Below are positions 666 through 63,044 of a stretch of DNA of 64,000 bases, piece after piece (position 1 is the stretch's first letter; each line of letters starts with the position of its first letter). The translations under genes and the position numbers were made by a program. Below the pieces are notes generated by a model, which did no database searches, was not told the DNA's origin, and worked only from the letters and a program-made list of their open reading frames with translations. The stretch covers positions 1 to 64,000 of the forward strand of contig KZ538169.1 of the NCBI GenBank assembly GCA_000934665.2. The letters are read 5' to 3'. The DNA comes from Catajapyx aquilonaris (taxonomy: Eukaryota).

Positions 666-1413
666 TTTAATGTCCCGCAGCTGGCGGATGTCTAACCCCG
701 GACAAAGGCACACCGTAGCCAGTTCTATATTTGGACACCATTATTGTTACTCTGTGCTGATACGGCTTTTTTCCAACTGACAGTGTTGAAGCAACTTAGA
801 TTTAATAAGGTTTGCACTTAATTGTTAACACTTGTGTTTCAGAAGGAGCAGCGCAGGCGCATCGTGAACCCCCGGTTGATTGGATGTTTTGACCGAGGTG
901 GGAGGTGCCAAAATTTCCCGCTCAAAAATAATTCGCCCCGCCCCCTTTTACATTTTTTTTTGGCTTCCTTTCGTTAGTGTACAATACACTTATAGTGACT
1001 TAGATTTTTTTTAGCTCTTTTAGGGTGATTATTGTGTAACTTGGCTGCGATTGGCTCGGGTTCACACTAGATATTCCTCGATGTTTTTTTTTTTGTTAAT
1101 TTAAAAATATATATTTAAATGACATAATGATAACAATTAAAAGCTTGTACATTTGTCCAGTTTATAGGACGCTAGGCAAAGGCGCATCATTCCGATTGGC
1201 CCGATGGGCGATGACGTGTGAACCCGAGTCTGTACCTCGTTTCAGCTCCCCAACCCAACTTTGACGTCACGGGAGTGGTTAGCACACCATACATTAAATT
1301 ACATTGTTAACCTAGACCTGTCTATTTCTACTCTTGATCTCTGATCTAGCCTTAGAGCCACTCATAACCTGTAGTGTGAGTTACCATTTCCCCTCTTCTT
1401 TTTTGTGTTTTAG

Positions 1414-1498
1414 GGGCTTCGGGTTTGTGACGTTCGCCGATCCAGCTAGCGTAGATAAAGTCTTAGCGCACGGCACTCATGAGCTAGACGGTAAAAAG
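1414..1498 (+). CDS. Rbp6: Exon, RRM1 second half ([28 protein letters not shown]), 85 bp, phase 2 to 0
   Basis: Polypyrimidine tract and tttag acceptor at 1412-1413; donor gtagga at 1499; RNP1 motif. Confidence 0.96.
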
Positions 1499-35700: not shown

Positions 35701-38700
35701 TGCTGTTGGTTGGACACACGTGCAGCTGAACATAGATCAAGCGTGTCTCATTAGCCGGGAAGGAGGCCAAACCAGGCCTTCAGGTAGTGCTGGGCATTAA
35801 TGGCGAACAGCAGCGCCTTAGCGGCAACCCCGCTCCCTATACGGGTGACAGCTGATTAGGGCACGCGATAAGTGTCCAGACCATGGTGCTGGTTAACTCC
35901 TGGTTTATTGTACATGTTGCACCATTCTCCGGAGGTACACTAACCCGTGTTCTTACGTATGATTGCAGATGGTGACGAGGACAAAGAAGATATTCGTCGG
36001 AGGACTCTCAGCGCCTACGACGTTAGAAGATGTCAAAAACTACTTTGAACAGTTTGGACCGGTGAGTACTCGCTTTGGCATACGATCCGCCTGTTTACGC
36101 CCCTCACGTTTTGAGCCTCGGTCGTACGACCAGACACTTTGCGACCGCAAAGCATCGTGCGACCTAGGCTCAAATCGTGAGGGCGTAAACAGGCCAGGAG
36201 AGAGGGTACGTTGTGAAGAGTCGTGAGACAGCCTGGCTCGAGGCTACTTCATGAAATAAACCTGTTATTGTACACTAGATGCCATTGGTTGATCCGAACC
36301 GCAACGACCACCGTGTGAACCCGTCCAAATTAGGCCGTACTAATGACACGCTCTGGTTTTTCAAGGGCGGTGTCATTTCTAGGGCCGGTTCTCATAACAG
36401 ACTCATTAGAGACTTTGCAGAGAGACAGGTTTTAATTTGGAGAGTTTGCTCCACAAAAAAAAAGAGCGAGCGAGAGAGAAGCGAGATGAGAGAGAATCTG
36501 GGTTTTGCGGGTTTGCAATTATTTCAAAACCCGGAGTCGGTTCGGAGCCAGCCAACCAGCGCGCTGGGTGGGATCGATAGTTCGCACCAGTCTCTGCCCT
36601 GCATGCTACCTCCTTTTCCTTTTCCGTTTTCGCCTAGAAAAGCTAGCGAGAGAGAGAAAAGGATATGGCAAAATGGAGTCTCCTGGCTCTTCGACCCTGG
36701 GAACTGCGGCAACCCTGTAGGCTGGCCCGGATCCACCAATGACAACCATGGTTCTAATTGTACCACCAGCTGATTCGAACAGCGAGGGTTTCCACGCTGG
36801 CGAGAATTGGTGGTAGCGTGAGCGAGAAGCCACTGTCTAGCCCATGCTGGAGAGAATCGGTGGTAGCGTGAGCGAGAAGCCCCTGTCTAGCCCATGCTGG
36901 AGAGAATCGGTGGTAGCGTGAGCGAGAAGCCCCTGTCTAGCCCATGCTGGAGAGAATCGTCTGTAGCGTGAGCGATGGTGTAGGGTCTCAGCGGCATGAT
37001 CACCACCATTCTATGACACGTGTAGCGTGAGCGAGAATCCACTGTCTGCCCCACGCTGGCGAGAATCCGCTGCACCATGAACGTGAGCGAGAAGCCACTG
37101 TCTGGCCCACGCTGGAGAAAATAGGCTGCAGCGTGAACGTAAGCGAGAAGTCCCTTACTGGCCCACGCTGGCGAAAATCGTGAGTGTGGGTGAGTGAGTG
37201 AAAATCCTCGTTCTTGTCCACGCTGGCGAGAATCATCATTAACATGAGCGAGATTTCTCTTTCTCGCCCACTTTGGCGAGAATCCGATGCACCTTGAACG
37301 TGAGCTAGAAGCCACTTTATCGCCCCACGCTGACGAGAAACGGCTGTATACTTGAATGTGAACGACAAGCCACTCTCGCCCACGCTGGGAAGAATCGGCT
37401 CTATAGCATGAGGTTGAGCGAGAATCCACTTTCTCGCCCCACGCTGACGAGAATCGGCTGCAGTTTGAATGTGAGTGAGAAGCCACTGTCTGACCCACGC
37501 CGGAGAGAATATGCTATAGCGTGAGCGAGAAGCTGGGCCCGTTTTGTCCGCATTGCAACAATGGCCGGAATGGTCTGAACCGGAAAAATACGGGGATGAT
37601 GTAGTGGCAGTCCTGCGTGCCAATAATGATCCGTGTTGGAAGCTGGGGGGCCCTGGATCTCCTGCCCCGCAGTCCCAGGGCGGCCCCATATCACCAGGGG
37701 CCGCCATAACTCTTCCTCTCCCACCCACCAACTATCGCATCGTCCATCTTCTCCAAAGCCTATATCCCCCCCTTCCAAAGGCAGGCTACAGAGCGCACGA
37801 TATATAGAGGATTTTTATGGCGATAGTCCGATTCCGCTTTCTATGGCTTATAAGTCCGGGTTTGGAGCCGATTCTGGCCAACCGATTACATCCGGATTAC
37901 AACTGGAGGATACCATCGTCGCGTTGCAAATTATAGTCCGCGCAGCCATTAACCGTCGCTGATCTGCGGCGCACAAGACGGACATAATTGTTGGCGGATA
38001 CGAACCCGAACACTCGTAATTAATTAAAAGGAAGGACTTTCGTAATAGGAGACCGTAGTGTCACGCTGCACCAACCTACCCCATGACCTAACCTTCCTTC
38101 CCGGCGGATACACGCCTATACCTCAGCGGATACACACATAGGAAAGTAGGGATAGCTCGACCACTTTCAGAAAGGGAAGTGACGTATGATGGCGTTTCAT
38201 AAAGGACAAATCAGAGGCACGATCCTCTCCCTCCCGCCCAATGAGCTTCAAGTATCCCATCTGATCGTGCCTCTGATTGGTGCTTTATGAAACGCCATCA
38301 TACGTCACGGCCGTTTCTGAAAGTGGTTGGAGCTGTAAAAGTGTTAACGAAAGTGTGGCCAATTAAAATTATCGAGCAATTGCGATGTACCGTGCCTGGC
38401 AGGGCCAGGAGACGGACAGTACTGGGTGCGGTCACCCAAAAGCTATACAGACAACACCAACCCGATTTTAGCTGATAATTCATGAGAGGCTGATTGGTGG
38501 ACCCCAACCGACATCGACATCGTGTGAACCCCATCAGACAAATCAGAGCCGACGGGATCCCCAGGGGGGAGAAAAAAAACCGACACTACATAACTCTCCT
38601 TCCAACCATATAGTTGTTTTACAGCCTACAAAAAGTTTTTTACGGCCTAATCATGATGAACATTGAGGGGGGGGGGGGGGTCCGGGTGGCATCGATTTTT

Positions 38701-41700: not shown

Positions 41701-44700
41701 TGGTCCTACTCGCGAGCTGTAAACGTGTGCTCCAAGCTTTCCAAAGCGTGAGCGTGAGCGAGCAGCCCATACTTGAACCAAATTCGACAGTTGACGCTAA
41801 AAGGTCTAGAATTTTCTCGGAAAATATTGTTCTCTGGAGCTTCAATGTCTTCCAAACTTTCAGAGGCGTGAGCCGAGAAGGCAATACTGGAACATCATTC
41901 GACAGTTGACGCTTTTAAAATGCCGAATTCGCTCAATATTAGTCCTACTCACGCATGTTCCAAGCTTTCGAAAGCTCAAGCGTGAGGGAGAAGCCCATTA
42001 CTTGAACCCCATTCGACAATTCACGCAAAAGTGTCGAAATTCGCTCGGAAAATATTGTTCTCGCGAGATTTAATGTTTTACAAGCTTTCAAAGTCGTGAG
42101 CGAGAAGGCAATACTGGAACCCCATTCGACAGTTATTGACGCTGAAATTCGCTCACAAATTGTCGTTCTCGCTAAGTACGGGTCTGCTTCGGGCGAGGGG
42201 TTATTCACTAAGGGTAGTCCGTGTACACCTTCGTGGGTAGTCCGGGGGCAGTCCGAGTAGTCCGGTAGTCCGTATACGCAAAATAATAATAATAAAAAAA
42301 TGTACGTGAAAACTCCTCAGTTGCGGGGTTTCGAAAACGTGAGCGTGAGCGAGAACCCCACATTGGAATCCAATTCCACAACTGGCGGTAAAAGGTGGCG
42401 AATTCGCTCGAAAATCTCGCAAGCGTGGAAACACATCCTGATTGCAAAATGCCATTTTGAAATTGAAAATGTCGAGCATAAAAGCCGTAAGTGCTGCCGT
42501 GTTTTCAACGCTCGTTTCATGCAACAAGCCAGCTTATGAACAAGCACCAGTATAATTATGCCGACGTACCCATTTGGTATGTACGCCGGGAGGCATACTC
42601 TTCCCGCAAACCACGCGCAATTCAAGGCCATAGGCGAATATACTTTTTTTTATAAATATCATCCGCTCCCCCGTTAAAATGGCGCCCAACGTGTACCAAC
42701 CGAAAGTAATTACATGCTTAGTAAGCCATAAATCGAGAGGACAAGAGCGTGACAGGTGTCGCTGCAAATTCGTCCATTAAAGCGGCCCTCGCAATTTGCG
42801 AAGAAGGACATAAATCCCATCCCTGGAGTATTCCCAGCGTAAATCTCTGGAATCCGGCAGAATGCTGGCGGGATTGGCCCGTTGCACCGATGGCCGATAG
42901 TCGTGTCGATACCGCACTGGAATTTTTGGAAGTGGTCCACATCTCCTTTTCCAGGGATTTATAGAGCCTTGTTTCCGACCAATAAGCTGGCTGGGTTCTG
43001 ACGTCACTGTGAAAAAAATGTGAGGGACTTCCCCGGACCCCCGAATTTGCATGGAGAGTGCTTAGGTTTGGGTTTTGGGAGGCCGAAGCGACGTGTATTT
43101 TGATTCAATTTGCATAGGACCGGGTCTGCCTCTAGCACTTGCCAAATGTGGCTAAATTTATCAACAGTTACAATAGTGTGTCCAGATTCATGCTAATGCT
43201 TGCACAATTATTTATTTTTTTACTACGTGTTGGCTGAGGTGATGACTTGCTCCGGACAGACTGCCGATTAGCATGTTTCACAGGAATTTCGGTATGGATG
43301 CCCATTGCAAGGCCACAATAACGTTCATTCGGCTTGTGTCACGCCTATGATGATTGACAGTCCGTATGCGGAAAGCAGGTGCTGATACGAAAGAGCCGTT
43401 ATTATTGGCCTATGAGGTCGCGAATGGAGTGAAAAGATGAATAGTTCATAGTGCAGATTGCGCCAGAGTCTATATTGAAGGGCGATGTTCCGGGTGATAG
43501 AGCCGCATTTCCCTTCCCCCCCGTTTTTCCATCATTTTGATACCGAGGAGACACAGGGGGGACAGGTGAAGTGACAGAGACGAGATTCCGATAACGTCGT
43601 CGGAGGCGCCATCTGGGGACTCCCTTCCAAATAACTCCCAATCTCGCTCCTGTCCCCGCCGCCACCCTGATTCCCACCCTCCTGACGAAATGAAGCTTGA
43701 GGTAAACAGTTGTCCGGGGCGAGTCATCACTTGAAGTTCGCCAGCTATGCGAGGGGTGGTGGTACTACCTAACAATAATTTTTTGTCGAAATGGAAAAGC
43801 TCACGCTTTTGGCTCCATTCCAGGTCGCAATTTCGCTCCTCCCCCTTTTCCGCTTTGCATGAGAATAGACCTCCCCACCCCCTCCTTCCCCCTCAATCTC
43901 CAGGCACCCGCTCGGAATGGTTTTCCTACAGATTGGTGGCGTAATCAGCGTTTGAAATGGCCTCCGGAAACATCCGGAGCGTCTGCGAGGGGTTAAGGGG
44001 GAGGGGGGGGGGGAAGGCGGGGAGGGAGGGAAGGAGGGCAAATTGAAAAGCTGGAGGGGGTGAGGTGGGGAGGGTCTGATGGGATTTACATTGCTATTTC
44101 AGGAAAAGGAATGGGGGAATGTAGGTGGTGGGAAATATCGGCATGTATTTGTAAACTGTAGTACCATATCCTCACTTAGATGACTCGCTGCACACTATAC
44201 GGTATTAAGGGCTGTTTACAGTGCTGGCCATATATCGAGGCAACCGCCAGCGACATTTTTCCGAAGCGGCAGAAGAAGTAATCGAAGATAAGCATGCTAC
44301 AAGCAGGGCGAGCAAGATTCCTTCTTCTGCCGCTTCGGAAAAATGTCGCTGGCGGTTGCCTCGATATATGGCCAGCACTGTACAAGCTCACGATATGAGA
44401 CTCGGTCGCACTACCGGACGTTTTGCGACCGACAGAAATCTGAAGTGAGTTAGGTATCCCGGACAAACATACATAGATACCAACAAACTTTCCCCGTTTA
44501 TAAGTACAGAGTTTGCTGAGAGGTCATTGTTGTGAACAGGTGGTCTGACCAGTTTTCTTGTTTCCAGATCGAGGATGCCATGTTGATGTTTGACAAGCAG
44601 ACGAACCGACATCGAGGTGAGTACTCTGAACAGTCTTCAGGTCTGCTACCTTACTCCTTTGACTGTACCCTTCCCGTATCCCAAAAGAACAAAATGGCGA

Positions 44701-50700: not shown

Positions 50701-53700
50701 GACCGCACCTGGTGGCCATGCCAGGCACAGTACAGTGTTGGTCATACACTATATCGAGGCAACTGCCAGCGACATATTCCGAAGCGGCAGAAGAAGGAAT
50801 CGAAGATAAGCATACTTACAAGCCGGGCGAGCAAGATTCCTTCTTCTGCCGCTTCGGAAAATGTCGCTGGCGGTTGCCTCGATATATGACCAACACTGTA
50901 CGTCCCATTCGCCTGAAGCGAGCGTTTAATATATATGTGTGTATGCTCATACTGTCCGTCTTGTGCGCCGCAACAAACGTTATTGTGGCGTTCCTATTTT
51001 TACCTAAATTCCTGCCGGACAGTACAAATACCAGGCCTGCGTTGAATAATTTCCTGCACTGTCATGTCACCGGTATTATTGTCTTCCCGATTAAGAATTA
51101 AAAGTGACACCTGAACCGGACACATGACATCTGCTATTAAGGCAACGACGCAATTGCAGCCGTTTTAATTATGAAGTGTCCACTCCTGACCTTTTCACCC
51201 GAGCCGTGATTGGCTAGTGTCACAGACCTTAAAACACATCTCTTATCTCCCAACAGGGTTTGGCTTCGTGACGTTCCAGAGCGAGGATGTGGTGGACAAG
51301 GTGTGCGAAATCCACTTCCACGAGATCAACAATAAAATGGTGAGTTTGAACGACGGAATATGTGACGACGCCATTTTTGGCCCTGCATTTATGTGTATAA
51401 AGGACGAAGTTTTGTCGGGCCCAGTCCCCTGCAACTTATGGTGGCGATAGCGTACTTAGAGAGTCTCCGCTGGCGCCTGCGTCACTCACTGGGATCTGCA
51501 GGTTGCCAGGCGCACTCGGGCGGACGCCTTCTGAACCAAACCGCAGTACAGAACCCTCAACCCCCGTCCGCAGATTCAGCCAGCAGCCACCTGAATGCGC
51601 CTGGCAACCCGCTGGGGACAGTGAGCGACGCCAGCGCCAAATTCCAGGCTGGCGAAGACTTGCAAAGTGACTTACCGTATCGTAGGAGTTGCGAGGGACC
51701 TTGTCGGGGCTACCTAAGCCACTTTCAGACTACTGAGAGTTCTGTAACTTGGCACACTGACAGCAGTCCGGACCTTGATTGTGTGAAACGTCCCAAATTC
51801 CACAGTGGTTGGTAATAAGACGAGTTATGGACGAATCTATGTTGCATAAGGCAAAGTTTGTATGTATATGCGGGCTACAAACCCACTTCCTGACTACCGA
51901 AAGTGCTGAAACTTGGCACACTGATAGCAGTCCGGACCTTGATTGAAGGAACGGTCCCAAAATCCACAGGGGTTGGTAATAAAGCGAGTTAGGGACGAAT
52001 TTTCACACTTCCGTGGCAATACGGCAATGCCGCACATGAGAGCCGCCATTTTTGGTCCAGCCCCTTTTGTTCGACCCGAGTCAACAATCCGAGTGGCTGA
52101 AACAGGGCTAACTCATCTCCAAGTCATGTCCACTAGGCGAGGGGGCGTCATTAGGGCGCTCACGGAACCGGAAGTAGGCCCCGCCGAATTAAACGCTCCG
52201 GATGAGGGCCCCCCCTTGAAATTCATCTGCAGGTGTGATGGTTGCACGTGGCAGCATCCGTCTCTCTCACGGCCGCCCGAAATTATTTCGGTGACTGCCC
52301 CGAAATTCATTACAGGCCCGGAGCCCTGCATTGATCATATCCGGCCTAAAAACTGCCTTACTTCAGGGCCCGACCTGGTTTTTTAAAAAAATCGCAATTA
52401 GTGCATGCCCATTAAAGCTGTCTCGCACGTCTTCATTTACGATCATAACCAACTGGCATTGGGTTACCGGGCCTAATGAGGTACAACTCGGGTTTTTGGA
52501 CCGGTTCTAATGAGAGGAATGGGCGGCTGTTGGTTAGCGTCTGAGTGGGCCCCATTTAGCATCTGAACGCGTGCAGTTGGTGGGACGCATCAGCGGGACG
52601 ACGGATTTAGTCGAGCGAGTATATTATCGCTAATGTGCTACTAGATGGCGGACCTGAGCTTGTATCGAGTCGTGAAGCAGCCTTGTGCGAGGCTGCTTCC
52701 AAACTGTTATTGAAACTCGAGCACGACTGCTGAGTCAGGAGAGACGACTTCAGGAAGTCAGGTCTCACAAAGTGTTGCAAGCTTGCGAGAATCGGTCCAG
52801 CGTGAGCGAGAAGCGAACAGTGGAACCCCATTGGACAGTTGACGCTAAGAATAGTTTAATTCGGTGGAAAAGTCGTGCTCACGAGCTTTGAAAGATGTGT
52901 TCCAAGCCATCGACAGTTTGAGATTAAGCGAGAAGCGAAAGCTGGACCACCGTTAACGCTAAAAGGCCTATTTAGAAACTGTGAGCTTGAGCGTTGAAGC
53001 TAATACTGGAGCCCCATTCGACAGTTGACCCTTAAAAGTGTCGTCTTTGCTCGAAATATCTCGTTCTCGCTATAACTAGGTGTGTTCCAAGTCATTGAAA
53101 GCGTGAGCGTGAGCGAGAAGCGAACAGTAGACCCCCGTTAAGCAGGTAACGCATAAAAAGTATCGTTCTTGCGAGCTTTAAATGTGTTTCAAGCCTTCGA
53201 AACAGCGTTGAAGCAAATACTGGAACCTAATTGGACAGTAGAGGCTAAGAGGGGTCTAATTCGTTCGTAAATTTTCGTTCTGGCGAACTTCAAATGTTTG
53301 CTTGAGCGAGAAGCTAATATTGGAACCCTGTTCAACAGTTAACGCTAGAAAGTCTCGTTCTCGCGAGCTTTAAATGAGCGTTTCAAGAATTCAAGCTATA
53401 GAAAGCGTGAGCGTGAGCTAATGCTGGAACCCCATTGGACAGTAGACGCTAATTCGTTCGTAAATTTTTGTTCTCGCTAGCATTACATGTATGTTCCAAG
53501 CTTTCGAAAGCGTGAGCGATAAGCTAATACTGGAACCCAACTCGACAGTTGACGCTAAGAATTATATAATTCGGTGGAAAAGTCTCGTTCCGGCAAGCTT
53601 TAATGACGTGCTCCTAAGCTAGCTCGATTTTTCGAGCGAATTTCTCACTTTTGAGCGTCAGCTGTCGAACAGGCTTGCAATATTGGCTTCTCGCCCACGC

Positions 53701-56700
53701 TGCGTCAGTTCTCGCAAGCTTTGGAACACACCGAGGGTGTTTTAATGTGTCAATGCTGACTGGCTTACTGACGTCATCATACTTCTGGTAAGAGCTTGTC
53801 ATGCCTGCAAGTAACTGCGTTCATAAGCTGGCGAGAATCACTCGGATCGTAAGCCCTCTTTGTCAGCCGCTTCTCGCTGAAGCTAAAATGCCTCGTATTC
53901 ACTCCAAAATTCGCCCTCGCAAGCCCGCACCAATCAATCGTAGCGAGAGCCAATTCTCGCCCACACTAAAATGTCACGAATTCGCTGGAATACGCCGGAT
54001 CTCTTGAGCATTTCAACTGGGTTGCCCATTTGCGAGAAACCCCTCCTCACCACGCATTTTCGAATGAGGGTGCACCTATTGGTTCGCTCCACGAGCTTAC
54101 AAGCGGCAGAGTGTGACTCGCTGCCCAAAAGCGGGGATAGCGAGCGTGAAAAATTCTCGCCGCCCATTCCGAATTCGTTCGCGTCAGATCTTGTGAGAAC
54201 AGACTTCTCGCTCTTGCTACGACCGATAAGGTGCGAATACCGGTGTTTTCTAGCAAATTTGAAACTTTTTAGCGTGAGCGAGAACTTTTCTCGCTCTGGC
54301 TCTACTTCAAGAGATATGCGAATTGCATTGAGTTAGCTTATTGTGTCTCTTGTGAATGGTCCTGAAGCGGGCTCATTTGGCGAGATGGGTCAAGTTGTCC
54401 TGACGGGACACCTTTTGTCCCGCCCCCTTTTCGAAAGCCTAATGGATTGGATACGCGTCCGCCACTCTTGCCTATTTATTTATTCATCCGGAGTAAATAG
54501 CGGTCCATCATGTGCACATCATTTGCATAAGTGTGGCCAGTCGCATTAAGGCTGAGGACCCACTTTTTGTGAACGGCCTTGATGAATTATTGTCGCTACA
54601 TTTAGCATATTAGTGTGGAGATTTATTGTGGACAGTTGTTGAGTGTGCGTTTCTTCCTATAGGTGGAGTGCAAGAAGGCGCAGCCTAAGGAGGTGATGCT
54701 GCCGGCCAACTTGGCTAAGAGCCGGGCGGCGGGAAGAGGGGCCTACGGTGAGTTGCTCTCGTCGATCGGGCTGGCCCTGGGGCTGGGGGCGGGCGGGGGC
54801 GGGGGCGGCCAGGGCGGGCATGGGGCGACCACCGGGGGCGGCACCTCGGGGGTTACCTACCGGTACGCTCCGTACTCTGTCCCCGTGGCGCTGGCTCCGG
54901 GTCTGGGCCTGTTGGGGGTTGGCCCCGCGGCCGCCCCCGGGCCGGCCCCCGGTACCGCCCCTGCCTCCGCCACGCCCCTACTGTACGGCCTGTACGGCCT
55001 GGAAGCCGCCGCCACCTGCAAACGAGTACTGGCCGCCCTGGCCTCCTCCTCGTCCTCGTCCGCCGCCCGGGGCGGCCCGGGGGCGGCCCCGACGCTCACC
55101 TACCCGGTGACAGACCTGGCCGCCCTCCAGGGCCTCAACCTGGCCATGTATCCCATCCCCGTCGGGCTCTAACTTCCCCTCGATTGTTGACCACCATTTA
55201 TTTCTGTTTATGGTTTTTTGGATTGTAGCACCATGTACGCTTTAATTGTTGGGGGTCATGTGGACCAATCGTCACGCTTTTTCGGACGCGCTCCGGCCAT
55301 CTTTTTTGCTGTTGTTGATTGTGGCACTGTAGACCCACCACCCCCCCCTATCGGCCCACCAGACAAACAAAAAGTTGGAAGTGAAATGGCATGTATTATG
55401 ATTGCGTTGCATTTTTTGCACTCAAAAGTGGGTCGAAAGTACAGTTCACTTGTTTTAGTACAACGCTTAATTGTTGGCGGGGGTTTGGACGCAGCCCACA
55501 CACACACACACAAAAGTTTTATTGCGAAATGATGTAGTTCCAACCCTGGCTCGTTCCTTCTGGTGAACCGCGACCTTGAAAGCGTTCCGGTCCGATGGGC
55601 TGCGTTCAAATTCGCGCTATTTTGCACGTCATTGTAACGCCCTCTTATTACACACGTTCGGGGCGCCTCTAGTCCGCTACAATACATATCTATTTCAACT
55701 AATTATCTATGATGGGGGAATAGCTCAAAAGCCGGAAACTAAGGAGGAGTGGGGAAGTAGCAGTTAAGTCGGAGGCTATTCTTTAAAAAAATATATAGAT
55801 CGTCCAATTTTTAACAGCCAGTCTGTGATGATGACGATGATGAACGAGGCCACTCAGGCCATATTTATAGTCTCAGTTCCGTTCAATTTTTTCCATCCAA
55901 AATTTGTGGACGTATCGAACCAAATGTCCCTTTAATTTTTGTGAAAACATGAACCGAAAAAAAGAGGCCAAGTACAACCGTTATTTTTGTAGAGAAAGGT
56001 GTGGAGGTGACGTCACTTCCGGCCACAGTATTAAGCGAATTTTTTAGAATATATATTTAACAAATGGCTATTTGTATAGATAGGGGCTTTTTTGATTGGG
56101 GGTGTGAAGTATTGTTAGATTAGGAAAGGCGAAAGGTTAGTTCAAAACGCTGGTCATTTGGAAAAAAAGCAGTGTCTGCACATGTGCAGATACGGTTTTT
56201 TTTTTTCCAAATAGTTTGTACTGTGTGTGCGTTTTCGAATTAACCTGGTTACGCCGCAGTGAGTCCTGGTGGTCTATGAATTCATACATTTAAGAAAATG
56301 CAAACAGCGAAACGGATTTTCTTCCTTAATATTTAATGTTGTAAATCCGATAGACTTGTTTAGGCCAGTACTTAGCTGTTCAGAAGGCGTCCGTTTCGCT
56401 GCGTAATGACTTGTTTATTTATTTGTTGTATGTCATCATCGCAATCGTCATGTGACGTCACGCTACTTGCATTTGTGTCGCTTTTTAAATGGGCTTGGAA
56501 AATGATTTTTTTCTGAGCAGATATGACGTTATGTGTTGGTTCCGAGTCACGTATATTTAATAATATTTAAAAAAATCGTATTTATTTCACAGTATAACTA
56601 TCGGTGTTAATTATACCAACTAATTAGCTATATTAACCACCAGGAAAAAAACGTAAGGGGGATGTGCCAAAAAATTTTGAGAATGAAGAAGACTGTTTTT

Positions 56701-59700
56701 TCTTCTGTAGTCTATAGAGAGAACTTATTTTGAGATTTAGAATATAGAAGAAAATTTTTAAAGAGGAGTTAGTCCATGTAGCTAATACTCAGGTGGTTAG
56801 TGAGTTACTACTACTACTACTAGCATTAATAGCCAGTTTGGTTTTTGGTCCTAAAGACATAGTATTTTGGATTATGTAAGGAAAAGGATCTATGCAAATT
56901 GAGTCTTCCTAGAAAATAGTCATTTCGCTTGAGTTGTGTTCTTTGTTAACTTACATAGTGATAGTTACAGTATAGTTTTTGATACTTTTCTACACGTACT
57001 AGTTCCAGAATATTTTTGTCTTCTTCGATAAAAAAAACAACAACCCATAACGGACTGGGGTATCTTGAAAATACATCCAAAAAAAAAGCATATCACTACG
57101 GTGGTGTTTTACTATTTATTCCTCGTAGATCTTCCAACTGTTGTAACCTCCTAGTCGTAACTAATCTCAAACTATTATACGTCTATATCTACAATTTTTT
57201 TTGGACTGAGTACTGTAGTTACTATGCAGAAAAAAAGTTTTTTGGATCCCTGTAACAAGACATTGGTTATAGAATAAACACTGTTTGGACCGCACTCCGC
57301 TTGTTGTCTTTATGACGTAGTAAAAAGTAGCTGGTTAGTTAGTTAGCTAGTAGTAGTAGTAGTAGTCGTCATAGCCACATAGTTTTAGCTCTAGTTTTCC
57401 TGATCCCCACCCCACCTAATTTTTTTACTAGCACTATTTTTGGGATGTGATTAACCCTTCAAGTGCTTACATAGGACATTCAATTTTTTTTCAAAAGATT
57501 TTCACTTTAAGGGTTAAATTTTTGGTTGGTTTTATTTTCTAGTAGGGTGGAAAACCGTTCTTACGCTGTGTTTTTTCTCTCTTCCGGATTTACAGACTTT
57601 ATGTGGTCCCTGGGAGCACTACCGGACGGTAGGTATCTTCACCTTTTATATTGTTGAGTATGGACTTACGCTGTTTTTCTCTTCCGATACGTGTGTTAGG
57701 TTTCCCAGCAGCGGCGTACGCAGCATACGCAGCAGGCAGAAGCTACTCGGGCTACCCAGGCTTCGGGCTGCCATACCCCGCAGGTAACTTGGCTGCCCAG
57801 GTGCCGCCCATGTGCTCCTCCGCCCCTACTCCGCACCTCCTCATCCCTCTCCCGGTCCACCATTTTGCCATGAACTTGTGATGCGGCGGCAGAGGGCAAA
57901 TTTAAGGTCATTGGTGACCTCTATTGTGCAAAAAAAAAATCCCCCCTTACCCGGGGTCCAAAAAGCGCACTCAGGAAATCGGACGGAAATGGCGGCCAGT
58001 CCAAGATTGTGGCGCTCAGTTTTTTTAATGCGCTAGTTCACATGTTCTTAAATTTCTTTGGGCTTAATTTTTACACTAACGGATATGCTCACTATGGGCC
58101 TTTCTGTTGGTACCGAACTTAGAACCAGATGGATCGTGGATGGTCGGAAATTTGGTGTCAAACTTTCGAGGCGGTGAGCGCCAAGATGGCCGCGTTTCCG
58201 TCCGGCCGTTTTTTTTACACAGTATTAGGAGCTCGGCGTCTGCTCCACGGTTCCTATGTATGCGGGGGCGACCCGGGAAGGGCGATCAAATCCCGCCCCG
58301 ACACAATCGCATGGCCAAATTTTTTTTTTATGTTCACCGCTTTCCCTACAAAAAAACACCGCCATGGAATATTTTGTATGAGTCCCTCTGTACAACCAAA
58401 CAATACCCCCCCTATGTCTTTTTTCATCAAATTGTATGCTTACTGTTAGAGAAGAGCGCTAACAAAAGCGCTTCCGTCCTAGACTTTATATTGCTGTAAA
58501 GGGGCCCCCTCGGAGAAGAGCGACTTGGAAGCGAAAGCGAGCGAGCGAGAGAGACCGAGACTCATCGACGCGACGTCGCCGCCATTTTTGTACAGTGTCA
58601 GAAACATGTATATATCACGGTATCTCCGCCCCTCCCCCTCCCAACTGTTAAAAAACGCGCTCATTGTTGTTGTGCTTTTAAAAAAAATATCGACGCTTTT
58701 AATGTTTATATAAAAATATTGGGGTGGGTGTGGACAACGGACAAAGTGCGGCCATTTTTTTAACGCTTAGAATTAGGTGGAAACATAAACTGGACCAGTG
58801 TTGGAAATATCCTTCCCGCTAACCAATGTGAAGTATTAACAACCCTAGGGAGGGGGTGTGATCTCAGAAACGAGATTTTGTTTGTTTTTAAACATTGTTC
58901 CCCTTTTGCCAAAAAAAACTATTAATAGTGCCAACTTTCCAGCTTGAACTAACTCGTGTGAATCTAGGACTGTGAAAAACTCCCTATCCCGGCTCTCCAC
59001 GACTAGTTAATATTACCCAACTAATAGTAGTTTTAGGTCCAGAAAGTAGATTAATATCCGGATACACCCCCATACCACCACCCTATGAGAATACAATAGA
59101 TATAGTGAGAAGCGAGTCCCCAAAATGGCGGGCGGTGGAACTAATGGCGCCGCCAAGCGAGACGCTCCTGAAGCTGCTTGTGCGTCTCGACCGGAAGCCC
59201 CACCCGACACCAAGTGGTAGTGTGGACGATTCATTTTACGTTTTTTACTATTTACCTATTGTTTTGGTTTTTTTATTGGACGCCCATTGTTGAGAGACAG
59301 TAGAAGTTTTTTTTTATAAATTTTTTTGATTGGCGCGATGCGTCATCCTTAATTTTTTTGACCAATCCCCAGTTGGCGCTAGAGCATTAGGCTTTAGACT
59401 AGACCAGATGGAATAAGGTCTATTTTAGATATTATCGAGCCCATTACTAACTCGGACGCTCCCGCCATACCACCACCATACCCCCCTTGACCTGACCTTT
59501 TGACCCCCCGCCCGCGCCCCGCCCCGGTCATGCAAAAGGGTCGTGAGGTCATGGTGTGACAGTCACTTTCAGGACTACCTCACGCGTAGTTAGTGTTTAC
59601 TTTTTATTGAAAACCCAAAAAAAGCAAGCATTGACTGCTTCCAATCAGTCTAGACCTGGCCTGGTGCCCTGTCACACACCATCTTAAAGTGTGACCTGGG

Positions 59701-62477
59701 ATGACCCTGTTTTGCTGCTCCGGGGAGAAAAAGGGTGTGGTGACCTTAGCTGGAAATTGGGTGCACTTTTTGACCCTTAAATTTTTTCGTGAAATTTCTG
59801 CCGCCATGTCTCGTTCCTGGGGATTTCAAATAGTTAAAAAATGACCTTTGACCTTTGACCTCACCTTTTGACCCTTTTGAAAATTTACCGCAAAAATATG
59901 GGGAGGGGGCAGGCGTTTGTGTGGCCGGAGCGGAGGAAAAACTACTACTTAGAGCTTTAGGAAACTATTTTCTAATCCTCCTATAGTTGGAATGGTGTGT
60001 GATGGCAGCCCATTTTGGATCTAATAATTCAAAGAACTCTCTTAATCGCAACAATGCAGGATTGCTAATTTAATCATTTGCCGATAGGACTAGATTGATT
60101 GGATCGTTTTTCTTAGATATCCAGCGTGTGTTCGTCTGTGTTTACTTGTTTGTTTCTTTATTGTGGTGTTTTTACTTAGGAAAAAGCAAGAGACGCAGTT
60201 CACCATAGATGGCGTCTTTGGCACTAGCTCGACGCCATCTTGGCTTAGGAGGGGGATAGCCTCTCAGTAGGCCTCTAGGGCCCTCCTAGGTTCTAATACT
60301 ATACGCTATAGCTATAGTCTAGCTAACCGCCATTTGATAGTCGCATGATTTTTGCTTGACTAATGCGGTCATGGAAGGCCCTTCCATTGCTCGACGAGGA
60401 AACGCATGCCAGTAGTGGAGTCGATACCTGTTCGGATAACACGGATACTATCGATACTTATAAGCATATTGGTACGGAAATGTTGATTCAGTCCCCTGTA
60501 ACTCCCACCCTAGCCTTATGGTGACAGTGTACTTAGAGTCTCCGCCAGCCCGGATTTGGCGCTGGCGTAGCTCACTGGGGCCGGTTGCCAGACGCACTCG
60601 GGACGCCTTCTGAACCAGCCAAACCCAAACCGTCAGAACCCTATGTCCCCGTCCGCATATTCGGCCGCTAGTGCGCCTGGCAACCCACTGAATGCCCAAT
60701 TCTGCTTGCGGAGACTCTAAGTACCCTCCCGTATCAGAGGAGTTGCTGGGAGGCTGATTTTATTCAAACGATACTATCGATGGACCTATGCGGATGGCTA
60801 GAATGGCATCTCTCCGGGTCGAGCAATGGCGGGCTTTGCAGGTGTCTTGTGCCCCATTTGTTTGTGTTTTTTTGACTGTGTTTTTTGATGCTTTGAACGA
60901 AATGCGAGACAAAAACACGCTGGGTGTGTGCCGCAGGGTTCCCGGGTTACGGCTACTTCCCGGCTCCGTCGGCGGCGGCAGCGGCGTCTGCGGCTGCTGC
61001 TGCGGCCGCCGCGGCCAATCCGGCGGAACGGGGCGGCAATCCGGCGGCTGCCGCAGCGGCCGCGGCCACCTACTACGACTACGCCTCGGCCGCAGCGGCA
61101 GCTGCGGCGGCGGCGGCGGCTGTGGCGCAGGTGTCGGTGGCGCCGTCGTCGTCTCGCAACGAGCAGAACCCCGGTGTCAACTCCTCGCCAATGCATCGCG
61201 ACTCCGTGGCCGCCGCATACGCAGCGCAGAGCCGGACGCAGGGAGGACAGCGTGAGCACCTTATCTTTACCCGAAACGCCCCTCTTGCTCCGCTCCGCAC
61301 CAACAAACCCTCTTCCGACGAAACCGTACACTTAAAACACCCACTCGATCAAGGTCTGTTCACAAGTTCACGAGAATTTACTTCTTGCTCACGCTCTAAA
61401 AAAAATAATGGCTCATTGCGACCACCTAATTCCCACCCTGGCCTTATGGGGACATTCGTGCTCTTAACAAGTCCTGTCACCCAAGGTTTGGCGCTGCAGT
61501 CGGGCACTACCAAATCGTATTCGGGCGAACGACTTATGAACTGTTCCGAACCCCCTTTCGCAGATTCGCCCACCAACTGCCCGAGTGCGCGTTGTTGCAA
61601 AATGTTTTATTCCAAATCGCATTCGGGCGGTTGGTGGGCGAATCTTCGGAAGGGGGCTGAATGGGAATATTGATGTACGTCCGAATACGATTTGGTACAG
61701 TGCGCCACATCCGGGGATGCGGAGACTCGTTAAGCGCATGCAAAAGAAGAGGGTGTTGAGAGGGGTGCGACCAATCAACACGCTTACGTTGAGCGAGAAG
61801 CCAATTCTCGGTCACGCAGTCACGCTAAAAATTGCGAGAATGACTTTTCGCGAGCTTGTGAACACGCCTGTAAGGGAGCAGACGCCACAATTTGCCCGCC
61901 ATTTTCGGTACATTTCGCGACAAAATTTGTAAGTGCCATTTCCACTTGGTTTCAGCTCCAGGCGAGTCTAGTCTCGATAGTTTGTGTTGCTAACTCCAAT
62001 CACTAATCGCATTTTGGCTGTCTTGTCGCTAGCATGCAGGCGGACTGGAGCGGGTAGATATCCGTTCTAATTGCCTGTTTACGCTCTGACGATTTGAGCC
62101 TCGGTCGCACGACCAGACGCCAGTCTGGTTGTGCGACCGAGGCTCAACTCGTGGCTTAATCAGGTTCACGCCCACTTTTACCCGCAGCTAGAACTCCCCA
62201 GAGATACTATCGACAGCCGATGCCGAATGGAAGTGTCACTTACTCGCATAATCATCGCAAGTTCATGCATTGACCTCGTGGCTTTTGCTATTTGGTTTTT
62301 GGCGAACCTGTCCCATCCTTGTCCGAACCTGCTCTAACTAATGTTGATCTGGGTGTATGTGTGGCCATGAGGACAAGCCCCTCACTCAAGTAGTCCTCCT
62401 TTCCTTCCCAGTGGACCTCCCGAATGGACAGCTCACTCCCAACAACAACACGCCGCTTCTGACGCAGGCGCTGTCGG
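1414..62477 (+). CDS. Rbp6: Musashi-family RNA-binding protein (Rbp6/MSI-like), multi-exon, 5' and 3' partial in this window
   Basis: Ten exons with canonical AG/GT ends splice in frame. They contain two RNP1 motifs (RGFGFVTF), RNP2 of RRM2 (IFVGGL), the Musashi linker [21 protein letters not shown], and [12 protein letters not shown] at the end of RRM2. The Rbp6 symbol comes from recognising the arthropod sequence, not from a search. Confidence 0.95.
4360..4570. mobile_element. MITE family A (Tc1/mariner-like, TA-flanked), copy 1
   Basis: About 70-bp near-perfect TIRs cagggtgttttccagattcgtgggtcac...gtgacccacgaatctgggaaaacaccctg, with TA on both sides. Confidence 0.8.
4612..4668. repeat. (AAT)n microsatellite, imperfect
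   Basis: Direct inspection. Confidence 0.95.
5643..5720. repeat. (GAT)n(AAT)n compound microsatellite
   Basis: Direct inspection. Confidence 0.95.
6773..6901. mobile_element. Fold-back MITE (about 58-bp arms) nested in an older TIR element (about 6703-6950)
   Basis: gtccgaaatattgtgtcgaattttcgtcccactgatagatactgctaacttagcagta / tactgctaagttagcagtatctgtcagtgggacgaaaattcgacagaatatttcggac; outer ends cactgtacccccgattatccg / cggataatcgggacacagtg. Confidence 0.7.
8748..8792. repeat. (CAG)n microsatellite, intronic
   Basis: caacaa followed by about 13 cag units. Confidence 0.95.
11868..12030. mobile_element. Dispersed repeat / MITE family F; second copy at about 38032-38151
   Basis: Shared aaggactttcgtaata...cacgctgcaccaacctac.ccatgacctaaccttccttcccggcggatacac; ends ctttcgtaata / tattacgaaag. 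Confidence 0.6.
13327..13368 (+). CDS. Rbp6: Exon, end of RRM1 and linker ([14 protein letters not shown]), 42 bp, phase 0-0; absent from the ORF track
   Basis: ctaattttcag acceptor, gtaagc donor; hallmark Musashi peptide. Confidence 0.96.
14210..14297. mobile_element. MITE family A, single-TIR remnant
   Basis: ta|cagggtgttccaagttcgtgggtcactttcttatcact... matches the TIR of 34793-35030. Confidence 0.65.
16895..17362. repeat. Three tandem copies of a unit of about 170 bp
   Basis: aatagttc...gtccagacgcgcctctg.ggcagttagtacgtccacagccggcccgtaaagttgcgag.cggcggccatcttg occurs three times. Confidence 0.8.
18815..18954. mobile_element. MITE family B, copy 2
   Basis: ggcccatttacacgatgacggtcctaac...gttaggaccggcatcgtgtaaacgggc; long inverted arms; shares interior with 511-665. 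Confidence 0.65.
19545..19610 (+). CDS. Candidate cassette exon ([22 protein letters not shown]), 66 bp, phase 0-0, in the inter-RRM linker intron
   Basis: Very long pyrimidine tract plus cgtag acceptor, GAG|gtatgt donor, 22 codons without a stop in the required frame. Confidence 0.5.
19915..21160. repeat. Degenerate ATATCGA-rich tandem repeat; also at 1-110 and about 9000-9385
   Basis: Recurring aatatcgaa.tgttgcctactagcatatcgatac.ctgatttt. Confidence 0.75.
24868..25103 (-). mobile_element. tRNA-derived SINE family 2
   Basis: Minus strand: A box tggcatagtgg, anticodon-like stem-loop tccga-ctgctaa-tcggg, B box ggttcgaatcc; TSD atacatcact at 24858-24867 and 25104-25113. Confidence 0.82.
25120..25845. 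repeat. Degenerate ggaaaccggttttcc/ggaaatccgg satellite, interrupted by a SINE
   Basis: Recurring motif with a duplicated unit ccgggaaccggtttcccatttccggaaatcc. Confidence 0.75.
25545..25764 (-). mobile_element. tRNA-derived SINE family 1, 3'-eroded
   Basis: Same body (gggagtgcaattctgcccggacatgtcgggtgaaaagc on the + strand) with B box. Confidence 0.75.
27834..28504. mobile_element. Non-autonomous TA-flanked DNA transposon (pogo/Tigger-like ends) carrying a SINE insertion; related short copy at about 2595-2688
   Basis: ta|cacttgactccggatataacagcc ... gcctgttatatccagaatcaactg|ta. Confidence 0.6.
28208..28404 (-). mobile_element. SINE family 1, 5'-truncated
   Basis: Same body; 17-bp TSD gcagaagttgg(a/c)attat at 28191 and 28405. 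Confidence 0.78.
29599..29796. mobile_element. MITE family A copy
   Basis: ta|cagggtgttccaagtatttga...tcaaatacttggcacgccctg|ta. Confidence 0.7.
31437..31724 (-). mobile_element. tRNA-derived SINE family 1, full-length
   Basis: On the minus strand: A box tggtctagtgg, B box ggttcaaatcc, same body, (taaaaa)n tail. Confidence 0.82.
32620..32985. repeat. Degenerate tandem repeat (ggatagcctc.tcccaggctc)
   Basis: tagcctc motif repeated about 10 times. Confidence 0.75.
33094..33107. other. Assembly gap (14 N); single Ns also at 1572, 39480 and 40684
   Basis: N characters adjacent to G/C homopolymers. Confidence 0.98.
34523..34740. mobile_element. MITE family A copy
   Basis: ta|caggatattcgaaatttgtgggtc...gacccacgaatttggaacaccctg|ta. 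Confidence 0.72.
34793..35030. mobile_element. MITE family A copy
   Basis: ta|cggggtgttccaagttcg...cgaacttggaacaccctg|ta. Confidence 0.75.
35039..35279. repeat. 27-bp minisatellite, about 9 near-identical copies
   Basis: Unit atactagttatattggttatatcagtg; degenerate relatives in both orientations at 34265-34520. Confidence 0.95.
35969..36061 (+). CDS. Rbp6: Exon, RRM2 start ([31 protein letters not shown]), 93 bp, phase 0-0
   Basis: ttgcag acceptor, gtgagt donor, RNP2 IFVGGL. Confidence 0.97.
36089..36194. mobile_element. Fold-back MITE family D; second copy at about 62073-62155
   Basis: gcctgtttacgcccctcacgttttgagcctcggtcg ... cgacctaggctcaaatcgtgagggcgtaaacaggc. Confidence 0.65.
36791..37535. 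repeat. About 50-bp tandem array of the GCGTGAGCGAGAA family
   Basis: Unit cccatgctggagagaatcggtggtagcgtgagcgagaagcccctgtctag; near-perfect at the left end, degenerating to the right. Confidence 0.9.
38152..38336. mobile_element. MITE family E; related copy at about 29441-29594
   Basis: Inverted arms accactttcagaaa...gtgacgtatgatggcgtttcataaag / ctttatgaaacgccatcatacgtcac...tttctgaaagtggt; shared core tcctctccct..cgcccaat.agcttcaagtatccc. Confidence 0.6.
44219..44380. mobile_element. MITE family C (TA-flanked, about 60-bp TIR), copy 1
   Basis: cagtgctggccatatatcgaggcaaccgccagcgacatttttccgaagcggcagaagaa and its reverse complement at the right end. Confidence 0.8.
44568..44616 (+). CDS. Rbp6: Exon, RRM2 ([17 protein letters not shown]), 49 bp, phase 0 to 1
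   Basis: ttttcttgtttccag acceptor, gtgagt donor; Musashi-type peptide. Confidence 0.96.
45010..46745. repeat. AT-rich degenerate (ta)gcagttat repeat; similar tracts at about 21920-22870, 26740-27830, 31080-32010, 47640-47880 (inverted) and 49090-49830
   Basis: Recurring aagcagttataaatattagtt / tagcagttattt motifs. Confidence 0.7.
46169..46501 (-). mobile_element. Retroposon (SINE family 3) with perfect 16-bp TSD
   Basis: TSD cactgagaattaagtt at 46153-46168 and 46502-46517; A-rich tail and A-box-like tggccgtgatgg head on the minus strand. Confidence 0.75.
47884..48158 (+). mobile_element. tRNA-derived SINE family 1, full-length
   Basis: A box tggtctagtgg, B box ggtcaaatcc, shared body cacccgacatgtccgggcagaattgca, A-rich tail, imperfect TSD aagtagctat. 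Confidence 0.8.
50733..50898. mobile_element. MITE family C, copy 2
   Basis: Same interior and TIR as 44219-44380; TA flanks. Confidence 0.8.
51257..51339 (+). CDS. Rbp6: Exon, RRM2 ([28 protein letters not shown]), 83 bp, phase 1 to 0
   Basis: tctcccaacag acceptor, gtgagt donor, RNP1. Confidence 0.97.
51706..52001. repeat. Tandem duplication of about 125 bp with period of about 165 bp
   Basis: aacttggcacactga.agcagtccggaccttgattg...ccacag.ggttggtaataa occurs twice. Confidence 0.8.
52790..53620. repeat. About 100-110-bp degenerate tandem array of the GCGTGAGCGAGAA family; similar array at about 41540-42170
   Basis: Recurring gcgtgagcgagaagc..atactggaacccattcgacagttgacgctaa. Confidence 0.8.
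54663..54747 (+). CDS. Rbp6: Exon, end of RRM2 ([28 protein letters not shown]), 85 bp when the donor at 54748 is used
   Basis: tttcttcctatag acceptor; G|gtgagt donor at 54748; phase 1 matches the downstream exons. Confidence 0.93.
54748..55172 (+). CDS. Rbp6: Alternative read-through terminal coding extension ([12 protein letters not shown]...YRYAPYSVP...MYPIPVGL*)
   Basis: Open frame of about 141 codons past the donor; very GC-rich with G/C-ending codons, dropping abruptly to AT-rich sequence after TAA at 55170-55172; Ala/Gly/Pro/Tyr composition typical of Musashi C-tails. Confidence 0.75.
57273..57278 (+). promoter_or_regulatory. Candidate polyadenylation signal for the read-through isoform
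   Basis: AATAAA followed about 20 nt later by GT/T-rich ttgttgtctttatg; the first canonical AATAAA I could find after the 55172 stop. Confidence 0.45.
57596..57628 (+). CDS. Rbp6: 33-nt microexon ([12 protein letters not shown]), phase 1-1; absent from the ORF track
   Basis: Strong polypyrimidine tract plus tacag acceptor, G|gtaggt donor, frame-preserving, no stop. Confidence 0.8.
57700..57783 (+). CDS. Rbp6: Exon ([29 protein letters not shown]), 84 bp, phase 1-1
   Basis: gttag acceptor, CAG|gtaact donor; Y/G/P/A-rich Musashi-like C-terminal segment. Confidence 0.88.
60490..60752. mobile_element. MITE family G; second copy at about 51423-51700
   Basis: Internal inverted repeat gtacttagagtctccgc / gcggagactctaagtac; shared ggttgccag.cgcactcgg..ggacgccttctgaacca...cagaaccct...ccccgtccgca.attc.gcc. 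Confidence 0.6.
60937..61251 (+). CDS. Rbp6: Poly-alanine-rich exon ([17 protein letters not shown]...SRTQGGQ), 315 bp, phase 1-1; 3' boundary less certain
   Basis: ccgcag acceptor; GC-rich coding-like sequence that ends at C|gtgagc (61252); begins FPGYGY as in Musashi tails. Confidence 0.75.
62412..62477 (+). CDS. Rbp6: Probable exon ([23 protein letters not shown]), 66 bp, phase 1-1
   Basis: tcctcctttccttcccag acceptor, G|gtaagc donor, open frame, symmetric phase. Confidence 0.68.
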
Positions 62478-63044
62478 GTAAGCACTCCTTCCGTACTAAC
62501 ATGTTGGCACACCCTGTACCAATCCTGCTTTTGGATGGCATGTAGCAAATAACCCTTTCTACTCGGGACACGGTTTGGGTCACAGCGAACGGGGCTGGAT
62601 AGGGGATCACATGCTCGAGCGAGAATTGGCTTCTCGCTCACGCTTTCGCTCGCGAGCTTGGGAATTCATCTTGAAGGTGTATTCACACGGTTTTCTAAGT
62701 CCGCTTCTCGCGAGCGTAAAGGTGTACTCACACGCTCGCGAGAAGCGAGTTCCCGACGTTCTAGCGTGGGCGAGAGACCGACGGACGAGGGGTGCGAGAA
62801 TTGCCATCTCTTCAAGCTCACGCGTTCGCTAAGTTAGTTTCTCGCCAGCTTGGGAAGCGAGTTCGTGACATTTTAGCGTGGGAGAGAATTGGCTTCTCGC
62901 TCTCGCTACTACGGATTCTTGCGAGCATGTGAACGCGCCTTTAAGGTGGCGGCAGGAAGCGACTTCAGGCCACGCTTTTTGGCAGCGACCAAAAGCGTGG
63001 CGAGTTGTTGCTCGCGAGCTTGTGAACACACCTATCGCTCATAA

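Follow-up and report, generated by a model that had tools for sequence, protein, structure and literature searches.

The window analyzed here, a 64,000-nucleotide (nt) stretch of the Catajapyx aquilonaris genome (contig KZ538169.1, positions 1 to 64,000 of the forward strand), contains on its plus strand most of one arthropod Musashi orthologue of the Rbp6 type, as located by motif search and by tblastn with insect Rbp6 proteins. Within this gene, an exon that ends at a consensus splice donor can also be read through that donor, in frame, into a second C-terminal tail that is mutually exclusive with the canonical one. This tail is almost certainly real coding sequence, and it is quite probable that it represents a genuine Rbp6-B-type read-through tail made as a composite terminal exon. 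The tail is of the Drosophila Rbp6 isoform B type, and the switch is not new, having already been annotated as fly isoform B and as RefSeq X-isoforms. The following features carry the argument.

54663–54747, plus strand: exon common to both isoforms, 85 nt, encoding 28 residues plus one base (from sequence, translation and spliced-transcript alignment).
54748–54753, plus strand: 5′ splice site GTGAGT, with the junction G(54747)|GTGAGT (from sequence).
54748–55169, plus strand: read-through coding extension of about 140 codons (ELLSSIG...YRYAPYSVP...CKRVLAAL), supported by a tail profile, tblastn with a Vespa protein, third-position base composition and alignments.
55170–55172, plus strand: TAA that ends the alternative isoform, immediately behind its C-terminal Gly-Leu (from sequence and translation).
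55173–57295, plus strand: putative 3′ untranslated region (UTR) of the alternative isoform, about 2.1 kb at 38% guanine plus cytosine (GC), its extent being predicted from composition and motifs.
57273–57278, plus strand: AATAAA, candidate poly(A) hexamer (from sequence).
57596–57628, plus strand: microexon of the canonical isoform, 33 nt, DFMWSLG (from motif search and tblastn).
57700–57783, plus strand: canonical exon, 84 nt, GFPAAAY (from motif search, tblastn and blastn to spliced loci).

The common exon follows an acceptor AG at 54661–54662, and its translation ends GRGAY. From 54663 the frame remains open for 169 codons, past the donor, to the TAA at 55170–55172; an internal 5′ splice site followed by an in-frame intronic stop is the arrangement of a composite terminal exon. 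The junction reads TACG|GTGAGTTGCTC in the window, and the donor, when left unspliced, is translated as Gly-Glu-Leu. Across the 19 read-through sequences compared (18 loci and the window), G|GTGAGT is retained without exception and the next base is T in 18, and, at the nucleotide level, the window remains similar to distant loci for about 10 nt beyond the exon end. At the protein level, the tail begins with an invariant Gly-Glu followed in 90% of cases by Leu, Gly-Glu-Leu/Phe being the translation of an unspliced donor. Because the donor is always kept and the similarity runs on for those 10 nt, this start corresponds to a translated 5′ splice-site consensus. The donor bases serve both outcomes, as splice site and as codons. 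The extension has 76.7% GC, distributed as 0.74, 0.67 and 0.89 over the three codon positions, third positions being A in only 4% and T in 7% of codons. In 100-nt bins, GC drops from 0.78 (55000) to 0.47 (55200), coincident with the stop, and the remaining intron has 37.9% GC. An earlier description of this DNA from its letters alone (hereafter, the sequence-only reading) had placed the donor G|GTGAGT at 54748, which is indeed the first intron base, and had described a frame with coding-like GC bias open to the TAA ending at 55172, as found here.

Homologues of the tail were sought by phmmer with the 169-residue open reading frame (ORF) as the query against 1.84 billion representative proteins. 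This search returned 77 matches at E ≤ 1e-3, 11 of them at E ≤ 1e-10; many span query residues 1–169 and finish at the protein’s own C-terminus. Seventeen of the 18 fetched matches, among which Timema shepardi and Glossina pallidipes are named, continue with Gly-Glu after the common exon, and one (P0059) is the spliced canonical form. A profile made from 17 sequences (alignment A1) was then run with 8000 proteins scored per search; among these, 12 proteins of at least 479 aa were found at E ≤ 1e-5 and 793 proteins of 75–478 aa at E ≤ 1e-8, the best 120 of the 793 being listed. Both RNA recognition motifs (RRMs) and the tail occur together in several RefSeq proteins, namely the full-length Vespa velutina Rbp6 isoform X6 (378 aa), the proteins of Drosophila teissieri, D. 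bipectinata (Rbp6 isoform X1) and D. sulfurigaster (X1) (495–518 aa), and Daphnia magna X2 (551 aa). The Daphnia protein ends in FYPVPVGL, compared with MYPIPVGL in the window, and the window tail end resembles crustacean forms in sequence. By tblastn, residues 215–378 of the Vespa isoform align with 54663–55169 (E = 3.4e-24) to the very end. Further carriers were recognized by sequence in Timema monikensis, T. podura, Bemisia tabaci, Polyplax serrata, Polypedilum vanderplanki, Lamprigera yunnana, and Tenebrio molitor, and by name, among the matches listed, in T. californicum, Brassicogethes, Culicoides, Dendroctonus, and Microctonus; all named matches are arthropods (insects or Daphnia). A word-indexed search with the tail alone (residues 28–169, against proteins of 297–2000 aa) gave nothing at E ≤ 1e-3. 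Low-complexity words probably crowded out the relatives in that search, because the later profile searches gave many.

For a control of frame, 163 tails were cut from Gly-Glu onwards out of 199 collected proteins, with the common exon excluded, and a hidden Markov model (HMM) was built from the 154 of these that have at most 260 residues. The search space was every stop-to-stop segment of 30 codons or more in the six frames of the window, 1358 in all. The ORF at 54663–55169 was matched at E = 8.2e-20 (68 bits), the overlapping frames gave no match, and the next best of the 1358 segments reached E = 2.4. This frame-specific homology, as measured by the profile, is beyond chance.

The tail consensus derived from column frequencies reads GEL..L ... 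RY[AT]PYP[LI]P ... QY ... LYD ... [YC]KR[LA][LF]AA..AAALR ... TLTY[PS][LM].DLLGVQGLD...LY..P...GL-end. In the 154 aligned tails, R, P and Y of RYxPY are present in 97%, 99% and 99%, K and R of the KR pair in 89% and 90%, the residues of DLL in 67%, 97% and 91%, Q in 92%, and the final GL in 84% and 88%. In the full set of 163 foreign tails, RYxPY was counted in 159, KR in 124, [TS]LxYxxx[DE]L in 107, and QGL in 138; by strict patterns, the first three of these motifs occur in order in 89 of the 163. The same 163 tails end in GL (117), GI (13) or GV (3), and 143 fit [GSH][LIV]. The window tail contains all motifs in order (RYxPYxxP, CKRxxAA, TLTYxxxDLxxLQGL, and the C-terminal Y..P.GL) and ends in VGL directly before the stop. 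All columns invariant in a 63-row alignment are kept in the window (R66, P69, Y70, P73, K119, R120, Y146, and L151). A shorter tail variant (GEFILIPA...IRYTPYAIP..., 127–131 codons in all) was observed in three related loci (L012, L013, and L015), which keep RYTPY and are without KR and DLL..QGL.

A scan of metagenome collections yielded 32 related loci with DNA. By anchor pattern, 17 of them carry a read-through ORF, 12 are spliced canonical and 3 are unmatched; one of the unmatched loci (L027) shows a Gly-Glu read-through under a looser pattern. The ratio of nonsynonymous to synonymous substitution (dN/dS) was calculated by the Nei-Gojobori method on the tail alone, for pairs of these related loci that do not include the window’s own sequence, for which no close relative was found. 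The resulting values were 0.143 (L001/L003), 0.04 (L001/L002), 0.221 (L002/L003), 0.16 (L021/L014), and 0.126 (L012/L015, the short tail variant). For the 179 codons of L021/L014, the proportion of synonymous differences (pS) is 0.284 versus 0.055 for nonsynonymous differences (pN), i.e., 36.5 differences (sd) at 128 synonymous sites (S) and 22.5 (nd) at 409 nonsynonymous sites (N). In two deeper locus pairs, synonymous sites were saturated. Together with the homologues, these ratios indicate that the tail, conserved from Daphnia to flies, is coding sequence under purifying selection. The sequence-only reading had suggested both a dN/dS check on the extension and a search for the ELLSSIG...MYPIPVGL tail in arthropods; the five ratios, at 0.04–0.221, support coding, and homologous tails were found from Daphnia to flies.

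The related loci also provide evidence at the level of transcripts. Locus L020 (3963 nt) contains a single ORF of 360 codons that encodes both RRMs and then the read-through tail, with 2743 nt at 31% GC after the stop. It is a spliced RNA copy, because it joins directly exons that in the window are separated by tens of kb. Locus L028 (3335 nt) is 99.09% identical to L020 across 770 nt (7 mismatches) and then continues with the canonical tail and 2012 different nt. The divergence point is exact (...CTCG|GTGAGT in L020 versus ...CTCG|GATTTCC in L028), and blastn of one against the other finds the common 770 nt only; evidently, the two derive from one gene. A second lineage repeats the split, with L021 and L014 carrying the read-through form (the stop being followed by at least 1625 nt and 1740 nt, respectively) and L022–L025 the canonical form. 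In relatives, both tails occur as RNA, one excluding the other and each trailed by a long sequence of its own. The homologous isoforms and the split of L020 and L028 at the donor thus bear out the proposal of the sequence-only reading that the gene has two mutually exclusive tails. Its further proposal, that tail identity is coupled to the choice of 3′ UTR, stands for the relative that yielded L020 and L028, while the site near 57295 in the window is predicted from motifs.

The closest known system is Drosophila Rbp6 isoform B, together with the RefSeq X-isoforms of Drosophila, Vespa velutina and Daphnia magna, which belong to the same family and show the same exon and the same G|GTGAGT read-through. 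The likeness extends to the order of motifs (RYxPYPxP ... KRxxAA ... Y.L.[DE]LL..[QP]G ... Y..PG[LI]-end) and to the sizes of neighboring exons. According to Table 1 of Siddall et al. (PMC3507872), D. melanogaster Rbp6 has exons of 85, 36, and 84 bp (exon 10 being 85 and exon 12 being 84) and introns of 3233 and 76 bp. The exons of the window, at 85, 33, and 84 nt, are close in size to those tabulated there (PMC3507872), and its introns measure 2848 nt after the common exon and 71 nt after the microexon. The tails themselves differ: that of the window has 140 residues, is rich in Gly, Ala, and Pro, and has 77% GC, whereas Drosophila tails, at about 280 residues, contain long runs of Gln, His, and Ala and have LPGI at the end. 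The link to D. melanogaster isoform B is drawn from passages of PMC3507872 and from the proteins of sibling species, rather than from the D. melanogaster tail sequence. In those passages, isoform B is stated to have only 10 residues in common with the C-terminal antigen of isoform A (PMC3507872).

Downstream of the stop, 55173–57589 contains a single AATAAA, at 57273, and no ATTAAA. The hexamer is accompanied by TGTA upstream at 57214 and 57251, by TGTTTGG at 57282–57288 and CA at 57293–57294, and by the GU-rich sequence TTGTTGTCTTT at 57301–57311; this pairing of hexamer and GU-rich element had been correctly called from the letters. Cleavage after this hexamer would yield a UTR of about 2.12 kb, and use of this exact site is about an even call. 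The segment had also been described as about 2.1 kb of AT-rich sequence free of repeats. The composition (37.9% GC) agrees, and 54663–57589 matches nothing else within the window; the exception is a short internal palindrome, observed at 56162–56203 as a perfect-centered 21+21 nt structure (86% complementary) with an A run on one side and a T run on the other. The putative 3′ UTR showed no nucleotide conservation against the 32 related loci, where matches end about 10 nt past the donor, and an Rfam search of the whole window returned only a transfer RNA (tRNA), with nothing at 54.6–57.6 kb.

Two other observations concern this segment. A 17-nt direct repeat (AGGTGGTTAGTGAGTTA / AGCTGGTTAGTTAGTTA) lies at 56791–56824 and 57329–57369, bracketing the AATAAA at 57273, and each copy is followed by a trinucleotide run, (TAC)n or (TAG)n, these being reverse complements (19 nt, 100% complementary). 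The pair may be the trace of a local rearrangement, or of a small insertion by which the poly(A) signal arrived. The Musashi-binding-like motif has the consensus [GA]U1-3AGU. It occurs 13 times in the putative UTR, compared with 8.3 ± 2.7 in dinucleotide shuffles, of which 64 in 1000 reach 13; there are 12 occurrences on the minus strand, and 13 is reached in 14 of 124 window tiles. Auto-regulation of Musashi through UTR motifs was considered and dropped, the motif showing no enrichment over shuffles, the minus strand, or window tiles.

From these elements, the following mechanism can be proposed. When the donor G|GTGAGT is used, the mRNA would join the microexon at 57596–57628 and the canonical tail (DFMWSLG/GFPAAAY). 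When the donor is left unused, the ribosome would read on through Gly-Glu-Leu and about 140 codons to the TAA at 55170–55172, and the read-through transcript would end by intronic cleavage and polyadenylation, most likely about 20 nt after the AATAAA at 57273. Competition between splicing and polyadenylation would then set the isoform ratio.

Several observations weigh against this assignment. All six frames are open across the island of about 77% GC, and 1071 of 5000 composition-matched shuffles are free of stops (expected P = 0.23 for 140 codons); by itself, the open frame is not beyond chance (about one in four or five). A single AATAAA in 2417 nt is also at chance level (shuffle mean 1.3). 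Therefore, homology had to decide. The window tail is only 33–52% identical to the 16 tails aligned in A1, and it departs from the consensus with PYSVP for PYPLP, DLAAL for DLLGV, and QGLN for QGLD. Furthermore, most tail proteins in the database are ORFs on genomic contigs that begin in the intron (e.g., ...LQVECKK). Because they begin with translated intron, these matches are evidence of conservation, not of expression, and for the present organism we infer the same isoform switch from sequence. A GC-rich intronic island with an accidental frame, or a decayed and unused relic of the tail, would account for the six open frames, the frequency of stop-free shuffles, and the semi-conserved residues that are off consensus. 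Such an origin is nevertheless very improbable, given the frame-specific profile match (E = 8.2e-20), the retention of every column invariant in the 63 sequences, a stop at the conserved position after GL with no frameshift, and a GC content at third codon positions that exceeds those at the first and second.

The remaining alternatives accept the tail and concern the end of its transcript. The tail could stem from a retained-intron transcript, perhaps nuclear-detained or decay-prone, that reaches the distal 3′ end and has no separate 2.1-kb 3′ UTR. Such a transcript would fit the alternative-tail contigs of relatives (L014, L020, and L021), none of which ends in a poly(A) run, as well as the chance-level AATAAA count. 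A strong consensus donor kept in 19 of 19 sequences would likewise be expected if splicing were the default and read-through regulated. We nonetheless consider intron retention distinctly unlikely. The conserved stop and the strong purifying selection argue for a productive protein isoform, and the 2743 nt after the stop of L020 do not match the canonical exons of L028, which fits a long intron as well as an independent end. Of the 83 AATAAA sites in the window (both strands), the one at 57273 also has the best poly(A) context, being the only one with at least two upstream TGTA and a strongly G/T-rich downstream 12-mer, by a combined score that was chosen after the site had been seen. Alternatively, the isoform may be real but use an earlier, non-canonical poly(A) signal, with a much shorter 3′ UTR; this possibility, which is counted within the composite-terminal-exon reading, is rather unlikely. 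Variant hexamers do occur upstream (AATATA at 55790, 56048, and 56741; AATACA at 55681 and 57070), and in relatives the distance from the stop to the first canonical hexamer varies, from about 58 nt in L006 to about 518 nt in L001. Against an early end, the transcript contigs of relatives carry at least 1.6–2.7 kb after the stop. A read-through tail made as a composite terminal exon thus remains the preferred reading.

Regarding function, no Pfam family matches the tail, whether in the ORF of the window or in two database tail proteins (P0001 and P0012), and full-length forms match RRM families only. An AlphaFold2 model based on the 63-row alignment has a mean predicted local distance difference test score of 51 and a predicted template modeling score of 0.16, with two short low-confidence helices (112–127 and 148–154) that cover CKRVLAAL and TDLAALQ. 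The tail is predicted to be disordered, with short conserved motifs. Our best guess is that these motifs would recruit partners, or a transport receptor, differing from those of the canonical tail.

One candidate for such a motif is RYxPY. Proline-tyrosine nuclear localization signals (PY-NLSs) of the M9 type, as in hnRNP A1 and FUS, are bound by transportin (karyopherin-β2) and have the consensus R/K/H-X2-5-P-Y. The R-Y-A-P-Y of the window fits the R-X2-5-P-Y core of this consensus, and AlphaFold2 predicts no structure around the motif. The likeness to a PY-NLS consists of the near-invariant R-Y-x-P-Y, the predicted disordered region, and its setting in an hnRNP-like RNA-binding protein; a point of difference is the distance to the basic exon, which ranges across species from about 13 to more than 100 residues. 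On this basis, the read-through tail might be an ancient pancrustacean localization switch with RYxPY as a candidate PY-type nuclear import signal, an idea that we hold only tentatively and consider unlikely. Under such a switch, the canonical tail would give a cytoplasmic translational regulator and the read-through tail a nuclear form, each with its own long 3′ UTR, and the doubling of the donor as the Gly-Glu-Leu start would have kept the two outcomes linked for several hundred million years. The PY-NLS signal is named in PMC11288931. In the passages of Siddall et al. cited above, the antibody-visible Rbp6 signal is cytoplasmic, and the antibody is unlikely to detect isoform B (PMC3507872). 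In the literature searched, this paper alone was found to mention the isoform, and only with regard to what its antibody fails to detect (PMC3507872). As judged by title or by the start of the abstract, no literature linking Musashi to a PY-NLS was found; a search of the literature on Rbp6, partly judged in the same way, found no study of the tail, its conservation, or its 3′ end.

Comparison with better-known systems helps to place the switch. In vertebrates, MSI1 and MSI2 carry a low-complexity tail after the same RRM2 end, and this C-terminal region, which is thought to hold partner contacts, includes PABP- and GLD2-interacting parts. The canonical tail of the window (DFMWSLG, GFPAAAY) is the counterpart of this vertebrate tail, and no similarity between the canonical and read-through tails was detectable. 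Contacts of the PABP/GLD-2 type for the read-through tail would be suggested by analogy only. No vertebrate counterpart of the read-through tail was seen in the searches, which were not designed to exclude one. The textbook case of a composite terminal exon with intronic polyadenylation is the secreted/membrane switch of immunoglobulin mu. As in that gene, an in-exon 5′ splice site would be set against a downstream intronic poly(A) site, leading to different C-termini and 3′ UTRs; unlike immunoglobulin mu, the poly(A) site here is predicted only and the putative UTR, at about 2.1 kb, is long.

The rest of the gene is distributed over the window in exon pieces, as follows.

1412–1501, plus strand: RRM exon piece (six-frame motif search and tblastn).
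About 13324–13371, plus strand: RRM exon piece (motif search and tblastn).
About 35969–36061, plus strand: RRM exon piece (motif search and tblastn).
About 44568–44618, plus strand: RRM exon piece (motif search and tblastn).
51256–51339, ends approximate, plus strand: RRM2 exon, upstream of the common exon (motif search, tblastn with Cryptotermes and Vespa Rbp6, and blastn to spliced transcript loci).
About 60.9 kb, plus strand: further canonical exon or exons (motif search and tblastn).
62411–62479, plus strand: canonical-tail exon of 23 residues (tblastn with Cryptotermes Rbp6 X2, 22 of 23 identical).

Assembled from these pieces, the gene has two tandem RRMs with Musashi-type ribonucleoprotein (RNP) motifs, the first half of RRM1 lying outside the window. 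After RRM2 follow canonical Rbp6/MSI-type tail exons that match Cryptotermes Rbp6 X2, with the canonical 3′ end beyond the window. The microexon at 57596–57628 opens the canonical tail, which is mutually exclusive with the read-through tail, and two spliced canonical forms (P0059 and P0089) support its junction. In relatives, the canonical spliced transcripts L022–L032 are without the DFMWSLG microexon (...ARGLGFPAAAAY...), and L016–L017 have it. As far as these transcripts indicate, the microexon is lineage-specific or itself alternative. A search for it in L003, L009, L012, and L015, in flanks of up to about 5 kb after the match, did not find it. The window contains 17 N bases at four places (1572, 33094–33107, 39480, and 40684), none of them near the read-through exon.

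Some further observations were made in the introns and in the gene models of relatives. A tRNA-Ser(GCT) gene or tRNA-derived element lies at 25022–25093 on the minus strand, in a large Musashi intron (Rfam, 38.4 bits; ARAGORN). A foldback element of about 167 nt (44217–44383, 87% self-complementary) has a second copy at 50731–50901 (90% identity, 6.5 kb away). Both copies are intronic, with the same peptide read on both strands, and they probably represent a small mobile element. In predicted proteins of three Timema species (P0092, P0094, and P0003), several tandem copies resembling the translated intron end plus the start of the common exon were seen, which suggests a tandem duplication of the common-exon acceptor region in stick insects. 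In the gene models of Lamprigera (P0080) and Tenebrio (P0081), the read-through tail runs into canonical GFPAAAY exons instead of ending in GL; these fused tails are probably ab initio mis-predictions, not a third isoform.

Musashi proteins control translation in stem cells and in the nervous system, and partner proteins bind their tails. For the window itself, the result is mostly a confirmation, in that a gene structure of an ordinary and already annotated kind was called correctly. For the family, the comparison indicates that Rbp6 genes of arthropods as far apart as water fleas and flies have retained a second tail, mutually exclusive with the canonical one, by way of an unused donor that encodes its first residues. 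The conserved motifs of this tail offer concrete handles for isoform-specific experiments.

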